From an uncultured bacterium (GTDB taxonomy: Bacteria; Patescibacteriota; Minisyncoccia; Phycocordibacterales; Phycocordibacteraceae), in the NCBI GenBank assembly GCA_903825105.1, contig CAIJZI010000007.1, positions 23,178 through 87,177 of the forward strand: a stretch of 64,000 nt of DNA, written 5' to 3'. The notes under the pieces were generated by a model. The model did not search any database. It was not told the DNA's origin and was given only the letters and a program-made list of their open reading frames with translations. Both the position numbers and the translations under genes were made by a program. Within the stretch, counting starts at the first letter, position 1, and each line of letters begins with the position of its first letter. This document shows, piece after piece, positions 6,989 to 61,644 of the stretch.

Positions 6989-7053
6989 AATTCAAAAAAT
7001 TGATAGCAAGACTTGGCCACTCGAACCGGAGCGCGATCCGTTTTTTGAATTGA
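6989..7053. repeat. palindromic element, family B (AATTCAAAAAA..AAGACTTGGCC..CCGGAGCGC..TTTTTTGAATT)
   Basis: 11-bp perfect terminal inverted arms; core modules shared with in-frame copy in prmC (9275-9332) and dnaE. Confidence 0.6.
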
Positions 7054-7590: not shown

Positions 7591-7616
7591 AGAGGTTCTG
7601 TTTAAAGTTTAAAAAA

Positions 7617-7646
7617 TGAGCAAGGGTAACCCTTGCTCATTTTTTG
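7617..7646 (+). terminator. rho-independent terminator with GGTAACC-core hairpin
   Basis: TGAGCAAGGG-TAA-CCCTTGCTCA followed by TTTTTT. Confidence 0.7.
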
Positions 7647-8674: not shown

Positions 8675-9043
8675 ATGGACAATCCGCAATCAGTTCAGGG
8701 GAACAAGCTCTATGTGGGCGGTATCCCTTATCGCTCAACAGAAGATGATATGAAGAAGGCCTTTAGCGAGGCTGGTTCAGTCGTTTCTGCGAGCATTATC
8801 AGTGACCGTATGACGGGCCGCTCACGCGGTTTCGGCTTCGTCGAAATGGCGTCTGAAGCAGAGGCTCAGGCGGCTATCGACCGATGGGACGGGAAGGAAA
8901 TGGATGGCCGAACGCTCTCCGTTTCTTTCGCACGCCCACAGGGTGATCGACCTCCTCGCCGCGATGGCGGTTTCGGAGGTGGTGACCGAGGTGGATACGG
9001 AGGCGGCAATAGCCAAGGTGGCTATGGCCGAGGTGGATACTAA
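8675..9043 (+). CDS. RRM-type glycine-rich RNA-binding protein
   Basis: RNP-2 LYVGGI and RNP-1 RGFGFVEM; C-terminal GGYGGG repeats; ~160-nt 5' UTR. Confidence 0.8.
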   Translation: MDNPQSVQGNKLYVGGIPYRSTEDDMKKAFSEAGSVVSASIISDRMTGRSRGFGFVEMASEAEAQAAIDRWDGKEMDGRTLSVSFARPQGDRPPRRDGGFGGGDRGGYGGGNSQGGYGRGGY

Positions 9044-9079
9044 TCCCCTGTCTGCATAATTTGCAGACTTCGCGAAAAC

Positions 9080-9116
9080 AAAAGCGCTCGCCAAATGGCG
9101 AGCGCTTTTGTTTTCT
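9080..9116 (+). terminator. rho-independent terminator
   Basis: AAAAGCGCTCGCC-AAAT-GGCGAGCGCTTTT then GTTTTCT. Confidence 0.75.
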
Positions 9117-9132
9117 GTGGTAACTTTATTTT

Positions 9133-9846
9133 ATGAATAAAGCTGAGGAGCCCGAGGCGTATACAATCGGCTGGCAACCATTTCTCGGATTAAAAATTTA
9201 TTTGGATTCAAAGCCTTTAATCCCCCGCCCAGAAACGGAGTGGTGGAGCGAATGTTTAATAAGCGAGGCGGCGGAAAAATTTTCGGTAGTAAGACTTGGC
9301 CGAGCGGCCCGGAGCGCTACCGAAAATTCTTTCGCCAACGAGCGACCCAGATTCCTCGATCTCTGCGCAGGATCAGGCGCGATTGGCTGTGCAGCACTCA
9401 AAACACTTCCATATATGGAAGTATTTTTTGGCGAGATCGACCCCGCACATGAAAAAACTATTTTAAAAAATATTGCAGAAAATAATTTAGATACTTCGCG
9501 CTCGCATATTTGCATCGGCGACCTATTCCAGCCATTTGAAAATATAAAGTTTGATGTTATCGCCGCCAACCCTCCCTACATCCCCGAAGACCGCGAGCTT
9601 CCTTCAAGCGTCGCCGACTACGAGCCTGCGCTCGCTCTTCGCGCAGGCAGCGACGGCCTCGCTCTTATTCGCCGCATCGCCACTTCCTTAAGGTTTCACC
9701 TTACTCCAAATGGCGTCGCGTGGATCGAGTGCGACTCTGCACATACAGAAGCCGCCCGTGCATTATTTATCGCTGAAGGCTTTGCTGCAGAGATTAAAAA
9801 TGATCACTATGGCGTTCCGCGCATCATTGTAGCTCGCCACGCTTAG
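9133..9846 (+). CDS. prmC: release factor glutamine N5-methyltransferase PrmC/HemK, carrying an in-frame palindromic-element insertion
   Basis: LIPRPETE and NPPY (IAANPPYIP) motifs, SAM-binding LDLCAGSGAIG; ~20-aa insertion KFSVVRLGRAARSATENSFA relative to E. coli HemK. Confidence 0.75.
   Translation: MNKAEEPEAYTIGWQPFLGLKIYLDSKPLIPRPETEWWSECLISEAAEKFSVVRLGRAARSATENSFANERPRFLDLCAGSGAIGCAALKTLPYMEVFFGEIDPAHEKTILKNIAENNLDTSRSHICIGDLFQPFENIKFDVIAANPPYIPEDRELPSSVADYEPALALRAGSDGLALIRRIATSLRFHLTPNGVAWIECDSAHTEAARALFIAEGFAAEIKNDHYGVPRIIVARHA
9275..9332. repeat. palindromic element family B inserted in-frame inside prmC
   Basis: AAAATTTTCGGTAG..TAAGACTTGGCCGAGCGGCCCGGAGCG..CTACCGAAAATT; 14-bp inverted arms; core shared with 6989-7053. 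Confidence 0.6.
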
Positions 9847-9864
9847 GCACGGTATAATGAGCAG

Positions 9865-11091
9865 ATGACTGAGCCACTTTCGACCGACCCGTATAAAGGC
9901 GTCCGCGACTTTTATCCTAGCGATTATGCACGAATGAACGCGATGTTCGCGCGCATCCGCGAGACATTATTTAAGTGGGGTTATGAAGAATACAACGCAT
10001 CGCCCTTGGAACGCGCCGAGATCTACGAAGCGAAGACTTCAGAAGAAATCGTGAATGAGCAGACCTATACTTTCACCGACCGCGGAGAACGCCGCGTGAC
10101 GCTGCGCCCCGAGATGACACCAACCCTCGCGAGAATGGTCTCGGCGAAGCGCCGCGAGCTCGCCTTCCCGCTCCGCTGGTTCTCTATCGGCAATCGCTTC
10201 CGCTATGAGCGTCCACAAAAAGGCAGGCTGCGAGAGTTTTACCAAACCGACATCGACCTTATCGGCCTCCCTGAAGGCGAAGCAGATCTTGAGATTATTA
10301 AAATCGCTTCAGAAATTTTGAAATCTTTTGGTGCTAAAGAAAGTGACTTTATCATTCGCATCAATTCGCGTTCTCTCTTAAACGAAGCGTGTCGCGAGGC
10401 CGGGCTCACGAGTGACGGTGTGCGCCAGTACCTCCGTCTCCTCGATAAAAAAGCGAAAATAACGGTGGAAGAATTTAAAGAAGCACTCGCCGCGATTACT
10501 ACCAAAGATCCGCTCTCTCTTATTCAGACGGAAAAGATGGACGCATTTCTCGCGACTCTCAAAGAACGCGGCGTTATGAATGCGACCTTTGACGCTGGTA
10601 TCACGCGCGGGTTTGATTATTACACCGGGATGGTTTTTGAAATATATGATACAAACCCGACGAATCCGCGCGCACTCTTCGGCGGCGGTCGCTACGACGG
10701 GCTTGTCGCCCTCTTCGGCGGCGACCCGATCCCTGCAGTTGGGTTCGCGCTCGGTGATGTGACGCTTGCCGACTTCCTCGAGACGCACAATCTTGTACCG
10801 AAGTCAGACTTCGGTAAACCGAAACTCTATATCGGTACCCCGTCGGTAGATACGATTCCTGCGGCACAAACATTCGCTAACACACTCCGCGAACAGGGCG
10901 TGTGCGTCTTCGTTAATCTCACGAGCCGCGGGCTCGGCGACCAGATTAAAGATGCGGTGAAGCGCGACATTCCCTTCTTCCTCGCGTACGGCGCTGATGA
11001 AGAAAAAAATAAAACGGTAAAGATGAAAGTGCTCGCGACGGGTGAAGAAAAAAATATCCCTGTTTCTGAAATCATAAGCGTTATCAAATAA
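9865..11091 (+). CDS. hisS: histidyl-tRNA synthetase
   Basis: class II motifs; LRPEMTP, GGRYDGL; length 408 aa. Confidence 0.9.
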   Translation: MTEPLSTDPYKGVRDFYPSDYARMNAMFARIRETLFKWGYEEYNASPLERAEIYEAKTSEEIVNEQTYTFTDRGERRVTLRPEMTPTLARMVSAKRRELAFPLRWFSIGNRFRYERPQKGRLREFYQTDIDLIGLPEGEADLEIIKIASEILKSFGAKESDFIIRINSRSLLNEACREAGLTSDGVRQYLRLLDKKAKITVEEFKEALAAITTKDPLSLIQTEKMDAFLATLKERGVMNATFDAGITRGFDYYTGMVFEIYDTNPTNPRALFGGGRYDGLVALFGGDPIPAVGFALGDVTLADFLETHNLVPKSDFGKPKLYIGTPSVDTIPAAQTFANTLREQGVCVFVNLTSRGLGDQIKDAVKRDIPFFLAYGADEEKNKTVKMKVLATGEEKNIPVSEIISVIK

Positions 11092-11092
11092 T

Positions 11093-11677
11093 ATGCGCGT
11101 CATTACCTTCGATATTGAATCTATTTCTGACTCGGTGGTGCGCGGGCATATCGATGTACGCGAACAAGAACTCACCGTCGTCGCGATTCACGATTCTGAA
11201 ACAGGAGAATATTCTGCCTATTTTAAAGATGAGCTACCTCAGCTCTGGCCGATTATCGAGCGCGCCGATATGCTCGTCGGATTCAATTCTGACTCATTCG
11301 ATATTCCGCTTCTGAATCGCTATTATCCCGGAGACTTGTCGAGTATTCGTTCACTCGACCTCTTAAGCGAAGTACAAAAAGCGCTCGGTCGCCGTATCCG
11401 CCTCCAGTCAATCGCCGAGGGCACTTTGGGTAAAAGTAAGTCAGGCGACGGGCTCACCGCAGGAGAATGGTGGAAGAGTGGCGACCGAGAAAAGGTGCGA
11501 GAATATTGTATCGACGATGTGCGCATCACGAGAGCAATTTATGAATACGCGCTCAAAAATGGCGTATTAAAATATAAAGACCTGCGCGATATCCGCGATA
11601 TTAAAATAGACACCTCGAGCTGGAGCGCCGAGCCAGAACAAAAACCGGCGGTTATGACACACGCACTTCAATTATGA
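11093..11677 (+). CDS. DEDD-family 3'-5' exonuclease
   Basis: Exo I FDIES, Exo II FNSDSFDIPLL, Exo III YCIDDVRITRAIYEY. Confidence 0.6.
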   Translation: MRVITFDIESISDSVVRGHIDVREQELTVVAIHDSETGEYSAYFKDELPQLWPIIERADMLVGFNSDSFDIPLLNRYYPGDLSSIRSLDLLSEVQKALGRRIRLQSIAEGTLGKSKSGDGLTAGEWWKSGDREKVREYCIDDVRITRAIYEYALKNGVLKYKDLRDIRDIKIDTSSWSAEPEQKPAVMTHALQL

Positions 11678-12363
11678 AAACTTCATTCACTGTCCCTATC
11701 GCTATTATTATCGGAGGCATTGTTGTCGCTGGATCAGTTTATTTTTCAATAAAAAAATCGGTCTTCCCGATTTCAAATAATGGGAACCCTGCACTTGTGC
11801 GCCCAGTGAGCGCAAATGATCATCTCCTCGGCAACCCAGCAGCGCCCGTCGTCGTGGTTGAGTATGCAGACTTTGACTGTGAATTTTGTAAAAACTTCAG
11901 CGACACGATGAACCAGATAATCGCGAATGAAGGAGCGAACGGACGAGTCGCTTGGGTCTATCGCGAATTCCCTCTTATCGAGATCCATCCAAACGCCTTC
12001 TCGAGCGCAGAAGCCGCAGAGTGCGCTGCGAAGACTGCGGGGAATGACGCGTTCTGGAAATTTGCTGATGCCCTATTCGCCAGCCAACCAGCCGACCCTT
12101 CGCAGTATGGAACGCTCGCTGCTTCAGCAGGAATCAGGGGCAACGATTTCGCCACCTGTTTTGAAAACGCATCAACAACAGTCGCCACACGCATCAACGC
12201 TGATCGACAAAACGCCCTCGCTTCTGGCGCCGTCGGCACGCCATATTCACTCATTCTCGTAAACGGCCAAACACCTGTCGTAATGACCGGTGCGTATTCT
12301 TATGATGCAGTGAAGCAACTTATTGATCAGGCGCTCGCGACGGTAAACGAAAACGGTAAGTAA
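11674..12363 (+). CDS. DsbA-family thiol:disulfide oxidoreductase, membrane-anchored
   Basis: N-terminal TM, thioredoxin CxxC active site (DCEFCK). Confidence 0.7.
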   Translation: MKTSFTVPIAIIIGGIVVAGSVYFSIKKSVFPISNNGNPALVRPVSANDHLLGNPAAPVVVVEYADFDCEFCKNFSDTMNQIIANEGANGRVAWVYREFPLIEIHPNAFSSAEAAECAAKTAGNDAFWKFADALFASQPADPSQYGTLAASAGIRGNDFATCFENASTTVATRINADRQNALASGAVGTPYSLILVNGQTPVVMTGAYSYDAVKQLIDQALATVNENGK

Positions 12364-12448
12364 TTTTCGGGACTCCACGGCGCGAGGACTGAACAATTTT
12401 TCAGCAGAAAAATTGTGTGCCCGAAAATTACTTACCGCTTTCGTCATC
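12345..12448. repeat. long palindromic element (family B-related) spanning the convergent 3' ends of two genes and supplying both stop codons
   Basis: ACGAAA[AG]CGGTAAGTAATTTTCGGG on both strands (24/25 nt) encodes ..NGK* for dsbA-like and ..SGK* for the nuclease; centre ACGGCGCGAGG..AATTTTTCAGCAGAAAAATT shared with dnaE insertion. Confidence 0.6.
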
Positions 12449-25431: not shown

Positions 25432-26154
25432 TTACTTCTCCATCCTCCATTTGTCAATATTCGCATGATGGCCGGTTTGGAGGACTTTTGGCACGCGATA
25501 ATTTTTACCTTTAAATAGAATAGTTTCGGGTCGCGTGTAGACCGCGCTCGAGGCGATGCGGAGCTCTTCAACCGATGTATCTTTGCCGAGAACCCCTGGC
25601 AGGCGGCGCGTAACAGCGTCGATGATCGCGAGCGCCGGCACTTCTCCGCCAGTATAAGTCGCCTCGCCAACAGCAAATTCTTTGACTGTTGCGAGTGTTT
25701 TCAAAATTTTCTTCGCGCGTTCGTCGATGCCTTCATAACGACCGCAGACGAGAATCACATTCTCGTATTCCGCGAGCGCGTCAGCATCTTTATTGGTGAA
25801 TTGTTTGGCGCTGGGCGAGAACCATACGACCAATGCCTTTCGTCCATGTTTGGACTTACGAAATCCCTCATCAGATGATGGATTTCGTAAGTCCCTCATA
25901 CGGCCCAATGCTTTCTGGACAGCCTTAATCACAGGCTCAGCCTGCATCACCATCCCTGGACCACCGCCATAGGGCTTGTCATCTACTTTTTTATAACTTC
26001 CTTCTGGCCCTTTAATAAAATCACGTGGATTCTGATATTTTATTGAAATCTTTTTTTCTTTTTGCGCACGACCAATGATTGATGTGTTCAGGTACGCATC
26101 GCAGGCTTCTGGAAACAATGTAATGAGATTAAATTTCATCGACCACCTGATCAA
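25432..26154 (-). CDS. trmD: tRNA (guanine37-N1)-methyltransferase TrmD with in-frame palindromic-element insertion
   Basis: MKFNLITLFPE N-terminus, SPOUT knot motifs; 15-aa insert DLRNPSSDEGFRKSK encoded by palindrome 25852-25894. Confidence 0.85.
   Translation of the reverse strand: MIRWSMKFNLITLFPEACDAYLNTSIIGRAQKEKKISIKYQNPRDFIKGPEGSYKKVDDKPYGGGPGMVMQAEPVIKAVQKALGRMRDLRNPSSDEGFRKSKHGRKALVVWFSPSAKQFTNKDADALAEYENVILVCGRYEGIDERAKKILKTLATVKEFAVGEATYTGGEVPALAIIDAVTRRLPGVLGKDTSVEELRIASSAVYTRPETILFKGKNYRVPKVLQTGHHANIDKWRMEK
25852..25894. repeat. palindromic element family A inside trmD coding sequence
   Basis: GGACTTACGAAATCC-CTCATCAGATGAT-GGATTTCGTAAGTCC; arms perfectly complementary; preceded by CATGTTTGG as in other copies. 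Confidence 0.8.
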
Positions 26155-26422
26155 CGGTCTTTATATCCCTTTTACCGCCGACGGGTTCATTTATTTTCAA
26201 ATTCACGCGCGCATTCCCTTTCATCCCGATCACGCGAAGAAGAATACGGAGAGCTTCAGCGGTCTTTCCGCTCTTGCCGATAATTTTCCCCATATCGTCT
26301 GGATGGACGGTGAGTGTGAGTAAAACTCCCATCTGGTCGATGGTTCGAGTGGTCTCAACCGACTCTGGATGTTCGGCGAGGGCTTTAACAGCGTATTCGA
26401 GAAATGCCTGATCTGCTTCCAT
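26129..26422 (-). CDS. KH-domain RNA-binding protein (KhpA/YlqC-like)
   Basis: GKIIGKSGKTAEALR (GxxG KH motif); between rpsP and trmD as in many bacteria. Confidence 0.6.
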   Translation of the reverse strand: MEADQAFLEYAVKALAEHPESVETTRTIDQMGVLLTLTVHPDDMGKIIGKSGKTAEALRILLRVIGMKGNARVNLKINEPVGGKRDIKTVDQVVDEI

Positions 26423-41197: not shown

Positions 41198-41217
41198 TGA
41201 ATTGTGTAAAAGAAAAA

Positions 41218-41250
41218 GTAGCAAAGGTAACCCTTGCTACTTTTTCTTTT
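41218..41250. terminator. GGTAACC-loop terminator hairpin between thrS and gyrB
   Basis: GTAGCAAAGG-TAA-CCCTTGCTAC then TTTTTCTTTT. Confidence 0.7.
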
Positions 41251-47638: not shown

Positions 47639-47683
47639 TGGATTTCGTCATCCCATCACTAATGATGGGTTTACGAAATCCAT
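47639..47683. repeat. palindromic element family A, intergenic copy (imperfect)
   Basis: GGATTTCGTCATCCC-ATCACTAATGAT-GGGTTTACGAAATCC preceded by ATGTTTGG as in the coding copies. Confidence 0.7.
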
Positions 47684-60028: not shown

Positions 60029-60892
60029 TCAGATGTAAAGAGCTTTTATAAACTTTTCACCCTCTTCTTTTGCTGGAACTTTCCCGTGCCAACGGTAGTC
60101 ATTTTCTATTTCTGTAACGCCTTTACCAGGGATAGTGCGCGCGACAATAAGCGTGGGCTTATCTTGTACTGATTTTGCCTTTTCAACAGCATCGATAAAA
60201 ATCTGTATGTCATTCCCGTCTATTTCAATCACATGCCAATTAAATGCCCTATATTTATCTGCGAGCGATTCTAACGGCATCACTTTTTCTGTCGTTCCGT
60301 CAATTTGAATATTGTTACGATCTATAATCGCAGTGAGGTTTGATAATTTATTTTTCCCGATGAACATTACTGCCTCCCAGGTATTTCCTTCTTCCTGCTC
60401 GCCATCGCTCATCACGCAGTACACCCTCCGCCCATGTTTGGACTTCGTAAATCCATCATCAGATGATGGATTTACGAAGTCCCTCAATACAAGTGCCATT
60501 CCTGCTGCTTGTGAGAGACCTTCGCCCAAAGGGCCAGAGGTAGTTTCGAGACCTGGTAATCGAATGCGCTCTGGATGCCCTTGCAGCCTGCTGCCAAATT
60601 TTCTTAAAGTTAAACATTCTTCAACAGGAAAATAGCCTGCGTGTGCCATAGCCGCATAAAGAACAGGACAAATGTGCCCATTACTTAAAACAAGCCGATC
60701 GCGCTCCTCCCACTCTGGGTTTTTTGGATCATGTTTCAGAATGTGAAAATAAAGAGCGGTAAAAATATCTGCCATGCCAAGCGCGCCTGCAGTGTGCCCG
60801 CTCCCCGCTTCAACAAGCATTCTGATAATCGTCTCGCGAATCATGCGCGCCTTTTCTTTGAGCGCGGTGATTTCTTCTTCAGTACATTTCAT
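60029..60892 (-). CDS. tktA: transketolase, N-terminal subunit (split enzyme) with in-frame palindromic-element insertion
   Basis: TPP-binding ..GSGHTAGALG.., ..SDGEQEEG..; 17-aa insert RDFVNPSSDDGFTKSKH encoded by palindrome 60440-60482. Confidence 0.85.
   Translation of the reverse strand: MKCTEEEITALKEKARMIRETIIRMLVEAGSGHTAGALGMADIFTALYFHILKHDPKNPEWEERDRLVLSNGHICPVLYAAMAHAGYFPVEECLTLRKFGSRLQGHPERIRLPGLETTSGPLGEGLSQAAGMALVLRDFVNPSSDDGFTKSKHGRRVYCVMSDGEQEEGNTWEAVMFIGKNKLSNLTAIIDRNNIQIDGTTEKVMPLESLADKYRAFNWHVIEIDGNDIQIFIDAVEKAKSVQDKPTLIVARTIPGKGVTEIENDYRWHGKVPAKEEGEKFIKALYI
60440..60482. repeat. palindromic element family A inside tktA coding sequence (perfect 43-bp palindrome)
   Basis: GGACTTCGTAAATCC-ATCATCAGATGAT-GGATTTACGAAGTCC, preceded by CATGTTTGG. 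Confidence 0.85.
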
Positions 60893-60906
60893 CTTCTTAT
60901 TGTACC

Positions 60907-61644
60907 TTATACACCATACGGGCTCTCGAGATTTTCGAATACTGCGAATGCCTCAAGCGGGTCTGTCGCGCGTAAGATGCCTGATCCTATAACCAAATTT
61001 GATACGCCAAGCGCAACAAGTTTTTTAGCGGTATCAAAAGAAATCCCGCCATCAATCTGTAAAGGGATCTTTGGGTGCCGTTCGCGAAAAATGCGCACCT
61101 TTTCTAAAACGCGTGTATCAAATGGCTGTCCCTGTTTACCGATTTGTGCGATGCCCATAAACTGTACAAAATCTATTTCGCCTAGACACTGCTCGATGAG
61201 TGCGAGTTTACTTTCTATATTAAGAGCAAGCCCGAAAGAAATCATAGATGAAAATCCGTTCGCGCCAAACTTCTTCCGTGCCGAAGAAAGAAGCTTTGAC
61301 ACATCACTGACTGATTCGGCGTGAAATAAAATGCGTGTCGCTCCGGACTCTATCCAAGAGTGCGCGACCTGTTCTGGATCAAAACACATCAGATCAATTT
61401 CATATTCTATTCTATCAAGATTGGGTAACATTGCCCCATCTTGCATCATCATTTCAAGTTCTGTTTGACTGCCTTTCGCAGCTTCAGGAGATACGTTGTA
61501 GGGCCAAGTTGGTGGTAATGCAAATTTGCCGTCGACGACATCAATCTGCACACGATTAACTGAAGAGATCTGTGAGAAAAGCGCAAGCTCTTCCTCAAAT
61601 TCTTTTTTTGAGTAGGGAAGGACGGCCGGTATAACAAGGCCCAT
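60907..61644 (-). CDS. rpe: ribulose-phosphate 3-epimerase-like TIM-barrel protein
   Basis: ..IDVVDGKFA.. and ..IDGGIS.. parallel Rpe motifs; assignment by similarity pattern only. Confidence 0.6.
   Translation of the reverse strand: MGLVIPAVLPYSKKEFEEELALFSQISSVNRVQIDVVDGKFALPPTWPYNVSPEAAKGSQTELEMMMQDGAMLPNLDRIEYEIDLMCFDPEQVAHSWIESGATRILFHAESVSDVSKLLSSARKKFGANGFSSMISFGLALNIESKLALIEQCLGEIDFVQFMGIAQIGKQGQPFDTRVLEKVRIFRERHPKIPLQIDGGISFDTAKKLVALGVSNLVIGSGILRATDPLEAFAVFENLESPYGV

Follow-up and report, generated by a model that had tools for sequence, protein, structure and literature searches.

The closest described counterparts of the element reported here are the Rickettsia palindromic elements (RPEs), reportedly described by Ogata and co-workers in 2000 and 2002 as RPE-1 to RPE-8. 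Our subject is a 67-nt hairpin lying in frame within a prmC gene, at positions 9270-9336 of a 64,000-nt stretch of contig CAIJZI010000007.1 from an uncultured member of the Patescibacteriota (the whole of this stretch is referred to below as the window). It belongs to a family of low-copy hairpin elements that occurs across the Patescibacteria, or candidate phyla radiation (CPR). RPEs and the CPR element are alike in being short hairpin repeats devoid of open reading frames (ORFs), placed between genes as well as in frame within housekeeping genes; both are retained at orthologous sites across species, are tolerated as surface loops, occur as several families per genome and reside in reduced, host-dependent bacteria. 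As befits an RPE-like class, the CPR element has multiple copies in a genome, it lies in frame in genuine protein genes, and some orthologs lack it. No sequence relationship to the RPEs is known, and the hosts are Patescibacteria rather than Rickettsia. The CPR element is also shorter than the RPEs, at approximately 70-85 nt, and differs in having a 29-nt tip common to class-level CPR lineages on arms that are free to vary, in the purifying selection acting on synonymous sites of that tip, and in the strand asymmetry of its arm mismatches.

More distant likenesses are offered by other hairpin systems. Repetitive extragenic palindromes (REPs) and bacterial interspersed mosaic elements (BIMEs), with their REP-associated tyrosine transposases (RAYTs), share with the CPR element imperfect palindromes, a preference for gene 3' ends and convergent spacers, and occurrence in both orientations; strand-specific recognition of a single-stranded DNA (ssDNA) hairpin is a further point of comparison. 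REPs are, however, extragenic, high-copy sequences of 20-40 nt with conserved stems and a GTAG or CGTC tag, whereas the CPR element has variable stems of about 22 bp, only occasionally a GTAG, some 25% of its copies in genes, a low copy number and no RAYT nearby. Classical MITEs (miniature transposable elements with inverted repeats), such as Correia, ERIC and Nezha, are likewise non-autonomous and form hairpins when transcribed, with sizes of 80-150 bp, but they carry conserved terminal inverted repeats, target-site duplications and related insertion sequences (IS), none of which was found for the CPR element in the loci examined. Integron attC sites resemble it in lying at gene 3' ends, in being hairpins of variable sequence recognised by structure, and in having one functional strand; their conserved boxes lie at the base of the hairpin rather than the tip, and they come with cassette arrays and an integrase, neither of which was seen here. 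Lastly, Kelchner and Wendel are said to have reported in 1996 that hairpins in chloroplast non-coding DNA are associated with minute inversions. There, as in the CPR element, an arm-flanked loop is met in both orientations at orthologous sites, although the chloroplast inversions are a mutational effect of ordinary hairpins and not a repeat family with a conserved loop.

A hairpin with a constant tip and variable arms

The host gene prmC (9133-9846, plus strand) codes, as judged from its ORF and profile matches, for a short N5-glutamine methyltransferase of the PrmC/HemK type, 237 aa in length and without the N-terminal domain. An earlier note, made from the sequence alone, had described an in-frame palindrome in this gene, and so it proved: within the ORF, perfect 12-nt arms, AATTTTCGGTAG (9278-9289) and CTACCGAAAATT (9317-9328), enclose AAGACTTGGCCGAGCGGCCCGGAGCG. 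A repeat search lengthens these arms to 20 nt at 90% complementarity (9270-9289 / 9317-9336), and the RNA fold of the hairpin reaches -36.7 kcal/mol (z = -5.4), a value equalled by none of 200 shuffled sequences. On the basis of the repeat search and the minimum free energy (MFE) structure, the element divides on the plus strand into a 5' arm (GGCGGAAAAATTTTCGGTA, 9270-9288), coding for part of AAEKFSV; a 29-nt tip module (GTAAGACTTGGCCGAGCGGCCCGGAGCGC, 9289-9317), coding for V53-A62 (VRLGRAARSA) and identical or near-identical in more than 100 CPR copies; and a 3' arm (TACCGAAAATTCTTTCGCC, 9318-9336), coding for TENSFA. The hairpin spans 22 codons of prmC, or 27-28 (approximately residues E45-R71) if weak outer pairs in the fold of the linker DNA are included, which place its outer limit on the plus strand at 9263-9345. 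The GAG...GAGCGA flanks of this copy agree with the outer-arm consensus, GAGCCGGCA...TGCCGGCGA, of other copies.

Exactly two occurrences of the combined core AAGACTTGGCC-N7-CCGGAGCGC are present in the window, one in prmC (9291-9317) and one outside it (7008-7034), each on the plus strand, where shuffled sequences lead one to expect none. The one outside prmC belongs to an intergenic palindrome at 6989-7051 (plus strand), the tip of which, GCAAGACTTGGCCACTCGAACCGGAGCGC, lies at 7006-7034, and which begins 10 nt past the stop codon of a MacB/FtsX permease gene. Its arms (6989-7007 / 7033-7051), delimited by repeat search, are unrelated to those of the prmC copy, in keeping with the earlier note, which had seen the core recur between different arms. 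The apical 9 nt of this second tip depart from the family consensus; a covariance model of the family scores it at 38.0 bits (E = 2.5e-7) against 70.4 bits for the prmC copy, and a search of the whole window with that model returned no further significant copy.

A scan of one genome per species with a degenerate pattern of the core gave at least 119 stretches. The half-cores AAGACTTGGCC and CCGGAGCGC, taken singly, show no enrichment in the window. As the sample was gathered by pattern, the invariance of the tip within it is partly imposed by the search; unbiased evidence on the tip comes from the prmC orthologs and from the GTAA and arm positions, which lie outside the search pattern. The surroundings of the copies were judged from loci of 8-20 kb, and some of the taxon labels on third-party assemblies may be loose.

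In an alignment of 119 distinct copies, the tip appears as a near-invariant 29-nt module, G-U-A-A-G-A-C-U-U-G-G-C-C-N-A-G-C-G-G-C-C-C-G-G-A-G-C-G-C (DNA consensus GT(A/t)(A/g)GACT(T/c)GGCC(T/a/g)AGCGGCCCGGAGCGC). The four positions preceding GAC, which read GTAA in most copies, are conserved at 99, 98, 79 and 81%, with G at the fourth in 15%. The modelled structure of the tip consists of a closing G-C pair and a U.G pair, an AAGA/AGC internal loop, a C-G and another U.G pair, and a GGCC/GGCC helix capped by NAGC; both U.G pairs are invariant. The pair that closes the tip is usually a purine-purine mismatch. Consensus in the adjoining arms is loose (89% of copies have G at arm position 4); an A-rich tract comes next in the 5' arm and a T-rich one in the 3' arm, beyond which the arms are free. 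Stems are about 22 bp long, and the total length of the hairpin peaks at 70-85 nt.

Arm columns vary freely among the copies, and pairing alone is retained. Across the 22 modelled pairs, 85.5% of alignment cells are paired, as compared with 65.9% in shuffled alignments and 38-55% in controls with slid partners; changes on both sides of a pair number 531 cells against 184 in shuffles, and covariation was detected in 14 of the 16 stem pairs tested. RNAalifold independently returned the arms and the apical GGCC/GGCC helix. The stem is thus kept by compensatory change, and the arrangement that the earlier note had read from two palindromes, a conserved core between variable inverted arms, is general to the family.

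Some copies depart from this plan. Among those found with the covariance model, one has the apical helix altered to GGGC/GCCC by a compensatory change, another has a 16-nt palindrome in place of that helix, and a further one holds a decayed tip within intact arms. A shorter subfamily (GTTGAATTGGCCTAGCGGCC-N-GAGCGC) has one nucleotide fewer on each side of the internal loop. Eight loci (L007, L011, L021, L029, L040, L057, L076 and L121) form a subfamily with conserved, elaborate arms (CCUCCGAACGAGG...CCGAGCUGAGGAGG) that include tandem G.A pairs and an internal loop. This is a discrete hairpin of approximately 76 nt with unrelated flanks; the genomes WY3.bin51 and FK3.bin18 each have at least three copies of it, and tRNA, RNase P or 5S genes are often close by. 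At L052 (1792-1932), two tips lie 84 nt apart, each with the same 5' arm but only the second with the matching 3' arm, a partial tandem duplication of an element.

Distribution and novelty

Among the matches listed, nearly all come from Saccharibacteria, Paceibacteria, Kaiser-, Adler- or Nomurabacteria, Minisyncoccia, and Peregrini- or Peribacteria, and several copies per genome are common (for example in clean1825, FK3.bin18 and OY970216). The three listed matches from outside the CPR lack arms and are chance matches. Protein homologs of the window PrmC similarly carry the names Patescibacteria, Paceibacteria or Kaiserbacteria. Copy number is low: two in the 64-kb window, and four copies other than the seeds in 800 kb of fetched loci.

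The family is apparently undescribed. Rfam 15, searched at gathering and at permissive thresholds with the window, eight loci and one isolated copy, yielded no family match; miRNA-like hits at noise level (E = 0.014 to 6.7) fell far under gathering scores. The core pattern had no match in 2.9 million viral contigs, phage records and plasmid records, and no description of the core sequence or of such a CPR element was found in the searchable literature. A sizeable part of bacterial diversity belongs to the Patescibacteria, whose tiny genomes experience strong pressure towards deletion; to our knowledge, almost no non-coding RNAs or repeat biology of their own have been described. A tip that outconserves the synonymous sites of the essential genes hosting it, that is shared from Saccharibacteria to Paceibacteria and Peregrinibacteria, and that is absent from Rfam and the searchable literature, is therefore either a new functional nucleic-acid motif or a self-maintaining parasite. 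On the practical side, the family yields a compact covariance model and a clade-specific signature, potentially a marker for CPR DNA.

Selection on the tip

Orthologs of prmC offer a view of the element that does not depend on the core pattern. The linker was scored in 109 of 120 PrmC homologs with 60-78% identity to the window protein. The canonical tip peptide is present in 46 of them (44 sense, 2 antisense), degenerate versions of it in about seven, and short linkers of 13-24 aa in 22; the remainder carry other inserts. What the earlier note had called an insertion is accordingly none relative to many close relatives, which have the same core, and is one relative to insertion-free CPR orthologs and to E. 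coli. In three loci fetched by protein identity alone (L001-L003), the tip is present in all three with 0-2 differences, and the RRM-prmC-hisS synteny is kept.

Four prmC genes sampled without the core agree, at identical amino acids, in 51 of 54 third-codon positions within the tip as against 428 of 861 elsewhere (Fisher p = 5e-12), the pairwise counts among orthologs not being independent. With three more genes found via the core pattern, the figures become 186 of 192 and 1292 of 2757. Identity at synonymous sites is thus 94-97% in the tip and 47-50% in the rest of the gene. Over all nucleotides, identity among the seven genes reaches 96% for the tip and 57% for the arms, with 68% for the remaining gene; the arms therefore evolve faster than the gene that contains them, yet stay complementary, while the tip scarcely changes.

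What keeps the tip constant is selection acting on the nucleic acid and not on the peptide. Conservation at the protein level does not account for it: other genes translate this DNA in different frames, and in one PrmC homolog (L051) it is inverted and read at the same site as ALRAARPSLT. A second inversion was seen between Wzy_C orthologs (L056 and L035), which carry the tip at the same alignment position in opposite orientations, the asymmetry of the inner arms flipping along with it. Opposite orientations at orthologous sites fit occasional inversion of the whole hairpin. The prmC insertion is old and not recent.

The earlier note had gone on to suggest modular, recombining elements. Recombination is not required by these data, with which compensatory change within lineages and whole-hairpin flips are consistent. 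Some room for module exchange is left, because different tip modules occupy the one PrmC site.

Strand asymmetry

The two strands of the hairpin are not equivalent. Scored relative to the orientation of the tip, arm mismatches comprise 80 G.T as against 13 A.C (p = 6e-13) and, outside the closing position, 63 G.A as against 2 C.T and 14 G.G as against 1 C.C. The bias persists in sense and antisense copies within ORFs, and in spacers of the ++, -- and +- classes. Arm mismatches are thus of kinds that only the strand with the tip in the GUAAGAC... sense tolerates, and the selected structure is probably a single strand of that polarity. Its simplest reading would be RNA, with ssDNA the less likely candidate; G.T and G.A are the best-tolerated mismatches in ssDNA hairpins too.

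Genomic positions of the copies

Positions were counted for 108 copies of the main type, a copy being taken as in an ORF if it lay in a long ORF with at least 30 codons on each side. By this measure 27 copies (approximately 25%) lie in ORFs, or 26 under a stricter test, and they occur in either orientation, 17 sense and 9 antisense. Besides PrmC, hosts confirmed with Pfam include a class I aminoacyl-tRNA synthetase (three genomes, same site), Wzy_C-type proteins, IF-2, UvrC and MiaA (two genomes, same site). In-gene copies are always in frame and never bring a stop codon. Of the tip's six frames, four or five contain no stop, and four are used, giving VRLGLAARSA, KTWPSGPER, ALRAARPSLT and RSGPLGQVL. 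The element thereby accounts for the first three of these as recurrent odd peptides in CPR proteins, and annotators and structure predictors may wish to treat such segments with caution as non-homologous inserts. Splicing of the insert from the RNA, or its bypass by the ribosome, is not supported, in-gene copies being stop-free and in frame.

Intergenic copies mostly lie 0-50 nt from a stop codon, and are found in 22 convergent, 19 co-directional sense, 18 co-directional antisense and 7 divergent spacers. The genes on either side are ordinary housekeeping genes. The co-directional adk-map and greA-lysS spacers, for instance, hold copies antisense to those genes. The idea that copies might sit within split genes was set aside, as the four tightest same-strand candidates (adk/map, greA/lysS, an unnamed gene/pnp, and a thioredoxin gene/thrS) are pairs of truly separate genes.

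Functional interpretation

We hold with moderate confidence that this is an RPE-like element in which the tip serves as a structured RNA or ssDNA module, its partner and function being putative. On this account, the element would have entered a permissive linker of prmC, between the helix that follows RPETEWW and the SAM-binding (S-adenosylmethionine-binding) strand, in an ancestor of a Paceibacteria clade, and would have been inherited vertically since. The ribosome would read through it to produce a poorly ordered surface loop, as with the RPEs, so that the coding insertion in PrmC would be a tolerated by-product and not the function. The object of selection would be a single-stranded hairpin of GUAAGAC... 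polarity, most simply an RNA, and the internal loop of the tip may be the recognition site for a putative conserved CPR factor.

Several observations sit uneasily with this account. Orientation relative to genes is unbiased, both in ORFs (17 vs 9) and in co-directional spacers (19 vs 18), which is awkward for a cis-acting mRNA element; antisense or independent transcription would be needed, and an alignment of the copies revealed no conserved promoter beside the element. The tip has decayed in some lineages (P0004, P0039, P0075 and L023). Moreover, of 94 copies (loci L004-L122), 63 have their tip-sense strand as the locally C-rich one, and once shared synteny is collapsed the tally is 33 of 44 independent groups (p = 0.0013); gene orientation, balanced at 46 vs 47, does not explain this bias. 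This points to a replication-linked effect at the level of DNA. It may reflect a survival bias or, alternatively, a replication-linked function. If hairpins provoke deletion more often on the lagging-strand template, the copies lost preferentially would be those presenting the more stable hairpin there.

A bolder extension, which we offer tentatively and consider less probable than the account above, is that an undescribed RNA or ssDNA system operating across the Patescibacteria uses the tip, on its stem of two turns, as its recognition module. In one form of such a system, a conserved factor would bind or process a family of hairpin RNAs, by analogy with pre-miRNAs. If true, these hairpins would be kept by selection within essential genes in either orientation, and would constitute a new class of structured non-coding element and not a decaying parasite.

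A purely selfish, non-autonomous hairpin element, akin to REP/RAYT, IS200/IS605 or MITE systems and recognised at its loop by a trans-acting ssDNA-hairpin enzyme, seems to us unlikely, though it has the most to say for itself among the competing explanations. Conservation of the tip would then be a requirement of mobility, or the outcome of repeated gene conversion, instead of a host function. Presence and absence at an orthologous spacer favour such an element: the site in L125 that corresponds to the second window copy is a hairpin-free spacer of 48 nt, next to a DUF5666 protein 64% identical to its counterpart in the window, and comparison of the filled and empty sites shows no evident direct repeat, at high divergence. 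So do the presence of at least six other hairpin families at the PrmC linker and at least three families in the window, and the neutral positions of the copies, which are depleted in ORFs (27 of 108) in genomes that are mostly coding. Within one genome the inner arms resemble each other but the outer arms do not (L018/L020, and the elaborate-arm subfamily in WY3.bin51 and FK3.bin18), and the strand-asymmetric mismatches, together with an orientation bias against GC skew, resemble replication-coupled ssDNA transposition. Yet no transposase, Y1 transposases among them, and no reverse transcriptase or integrase was found among 150 flanking proteins, nor any transposase, reverse transcriptase or integrase among recurrent neighbour clusters; nothing turned up in viral or plasmid collections, and copy number is low, with only the four non-seed copies in 800 kb. 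It is also the arms that vary, the reverse of a classical MITE or REP, and no target-site duplication is visible. Old orthologous copies hold the tip at 94-97% identity amid saturated synonymous sites, which is not expected of dead copies of a parasite.

Less likely again, in our estimation, is that the family consists of intrinsic terminators acting in both directions, or of hairpins at mRNA 3' ends, with a specialised loop in either case; these would benefit the host and would sometimes have been duplicated into genes. The layout of an A-tract, a GC-rich structured hairpin and a T-tract is suggestive, as are the location of most intergenic copies within 50 nt past a stop codon, the enrichment of convergent (22) and depletion of divergent (7) spacers, and the plain terminator-like palindromes of the window at 9074-9115, 41208-41250 and 7611-7645, which match the arm part of the covariance model. 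Against this, copies occupy co-directional spacers such as adk-map and greA-lysS and lie, in frame, within essential genes, for which termination would be damaging; the U-tract is paired with the A-tract inside the 22-bp stem; an invariant 29-nt loop with conserved G.U pairs would be superfluous; and the mismatch asymmetry tracks the tip and not the direction of the upstream gene.

The remaining explanations are both effectively excluded. Derivation from a tRNA (a Ser/Leu D-arm), the possibility raised by the earlier note, finds encouragement in the match of TGGCCGAGCGG in the window copy to class II tRNA D-arms and in an L124 insert that begins with GUCUGGCCGAGCG. It is nevertheless highly improbable: the family consensus has T (72%) and not the G (10%) needed for TGGCCGAGCGG at the diagnostic position, an ARAGORN scan of 56 loci placed no tRNA over any copy, Rfam made no tRNA call on any copy searched, a GGCC/GGCC helix with a 4-nt loop is not a D-arm, and D-arms of CPR tRNA-Ser, -Leu and -Tyr match, by eye, at about 13 of 21 positions with no graded intermediates seen. 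A lineage-specific adaptive loop of the PrmC protein, with the palindrome incidental, is hardly credible despite the retention of SVV(R/G)LG(L/R)AARSAT in many orthologs, given that synonymous sites are conserved as much as amino acids, that the same DNA serves in four frames and orientations in other proteins and in intergenic DNA, that the L051 homolog carries it inverted as ALRAARPSLT, and that the loop is predicted to be disordered and is dispensed with by 22 homologs.

A number of narrower possibilities were also discarded. The element consists of isolated hairpins of 70-85 nt and not of 36-nt tandem arrays, at variance with TIGR-Tas arrays. An origin of the arms by inverted target duplication was rejected, insertion-free PrmC linkers sharing no homology with either arm, as was insertion into the loops of existing terminators, since both arms accompany the copies found in genes and the outer arms enclose the A/T tracts. 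A comparison by eye with the 5S rRNA of L011 gave nothing convincing, and we know of no convincing resemblance of the element to SRP (signal recognition particle) RNA, the sarcin-ricin loop, RNase P, K-turn, box C/D or loop E motifs.

The PrmC protein and its linker

A profile search of the window proteins matched the prmC ORF to TIGR03534 (E = 2e-47) and to PF05175; the TIGR03534 score is 161.8 bits, under the cut-off of 199.1 bits. The protein aligns with residues 65-271 of E. coli HemK (2b3t), so that the N-terminal helical domain of HemK is missing. Many PrmC homologs are as short as this one, and others have 30-50 extra N-terminal residues. The earlier note had placed an insertion of about 20 aa between the RPETE segment and the SAM motif. 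The alignment to HemK has its gap at that very point, and the figure is right as a net one: about 17 aa relative to HemK, and 19 aa relative to short-linker homologs (35 vs 16 aa).

An AlphaFold model of the window PrmC (mean predicted local distance difference test score, pLDDT, of 86.9) shows a confident methyltransferase fold. Values below 50 are confined to residues 1-3 and 54-68, the latter comprising the peptide of the tip and 3' arm and lying between a helix (33-55) and a strand (73-76). The model thus suggests that the insert forms a poorly ordered surface loop and leaves the PrmC fold intact.

The gene order around prmC, comprising an RRM-domain RNA-binding protein, prmC, hisS and an RNase H-like gene (window 8675-11677), is kept in L001-L003 and L124-L127 (Paceibacteria). 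The RRM-domain protein is a candidate RNA binder only, and nothing found ties it to the hairpin. Four PrmC homologs (P0002, P0003, P0044 and P0060) bear a second, independent insertion, (G/S)P(A/T)FA(K/E)AS(S/A)GK, after the NNLD motif (alignment columns ~237-252), which looks like another short palindrome-encoded peptide.

Other hairpin families

The earlier note also spoke of more than one palindrome family, and others do exist, in the window and at the PrmC linker alike. Among PrmC homologs with other inserts, all five examined at the level of DNA (L123-L127) carry long in-frame hairpins with different tips and MFEs of -43 to -89 kcal/mol. At least six unrelated hairpin families were seen at this linker, for example FSATGCPKAKPGPEGAEKS, VSQRDGARPSKFSAENY, MKKVWPSEAKGPEDFLK, SASDGERHEQIFSRKLCV, RSATAREEAIFQQKNT and SEWSGRPKGGGPRIFARGAE, and the site is a hot spot of hairpin insertion or replacement.

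One such family has a relative in the window, a 98-nt intergenic hairpin at 12347-12444 with arms ACGAAAACGGTAAGTAATTTTCGGG and its complement and a tip containing GCGCGAGGA...AATTTTTCAGCAGAAAAATT. Its TTTTTCAGCAGAAAAA tip recurs in L125 and L127, and in-frame inserts at the PrmC linker of L125, L126 and L127 (peptide ...FSAEKY... or ...IFSRKL...) have the TTTTCAGCAGAAAA module as their tip. A third palindrome family (GGACTTCGTAAATCCATCATC and its complement), probably the one that the earlier note counted as its first, occurs at 60440-60482, 25852-25894 and 47639-47682. The first two copies lie in frame on the minus strand, in the ORF of a transketolase N-terminal subunit (60032-60952) and in TrmD (25435-26160), respectively, and encode RD(F/L)(V/R)NPSSD(D/E)GF(T/R)KSKHGR.

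Finally, the window holds perfect palindromes with arms of 17-21 nt and loops of 0-2 nt at 9074-9115, 41208-41250, 7611-7645 and 1494-1531. The last scores at noise level against the covariance model (E = 1.1). The first three match only its arm half (E = 0.04-0.2) and, with their A-tract and T-tract flanks, look like plain bidirectional terminators.

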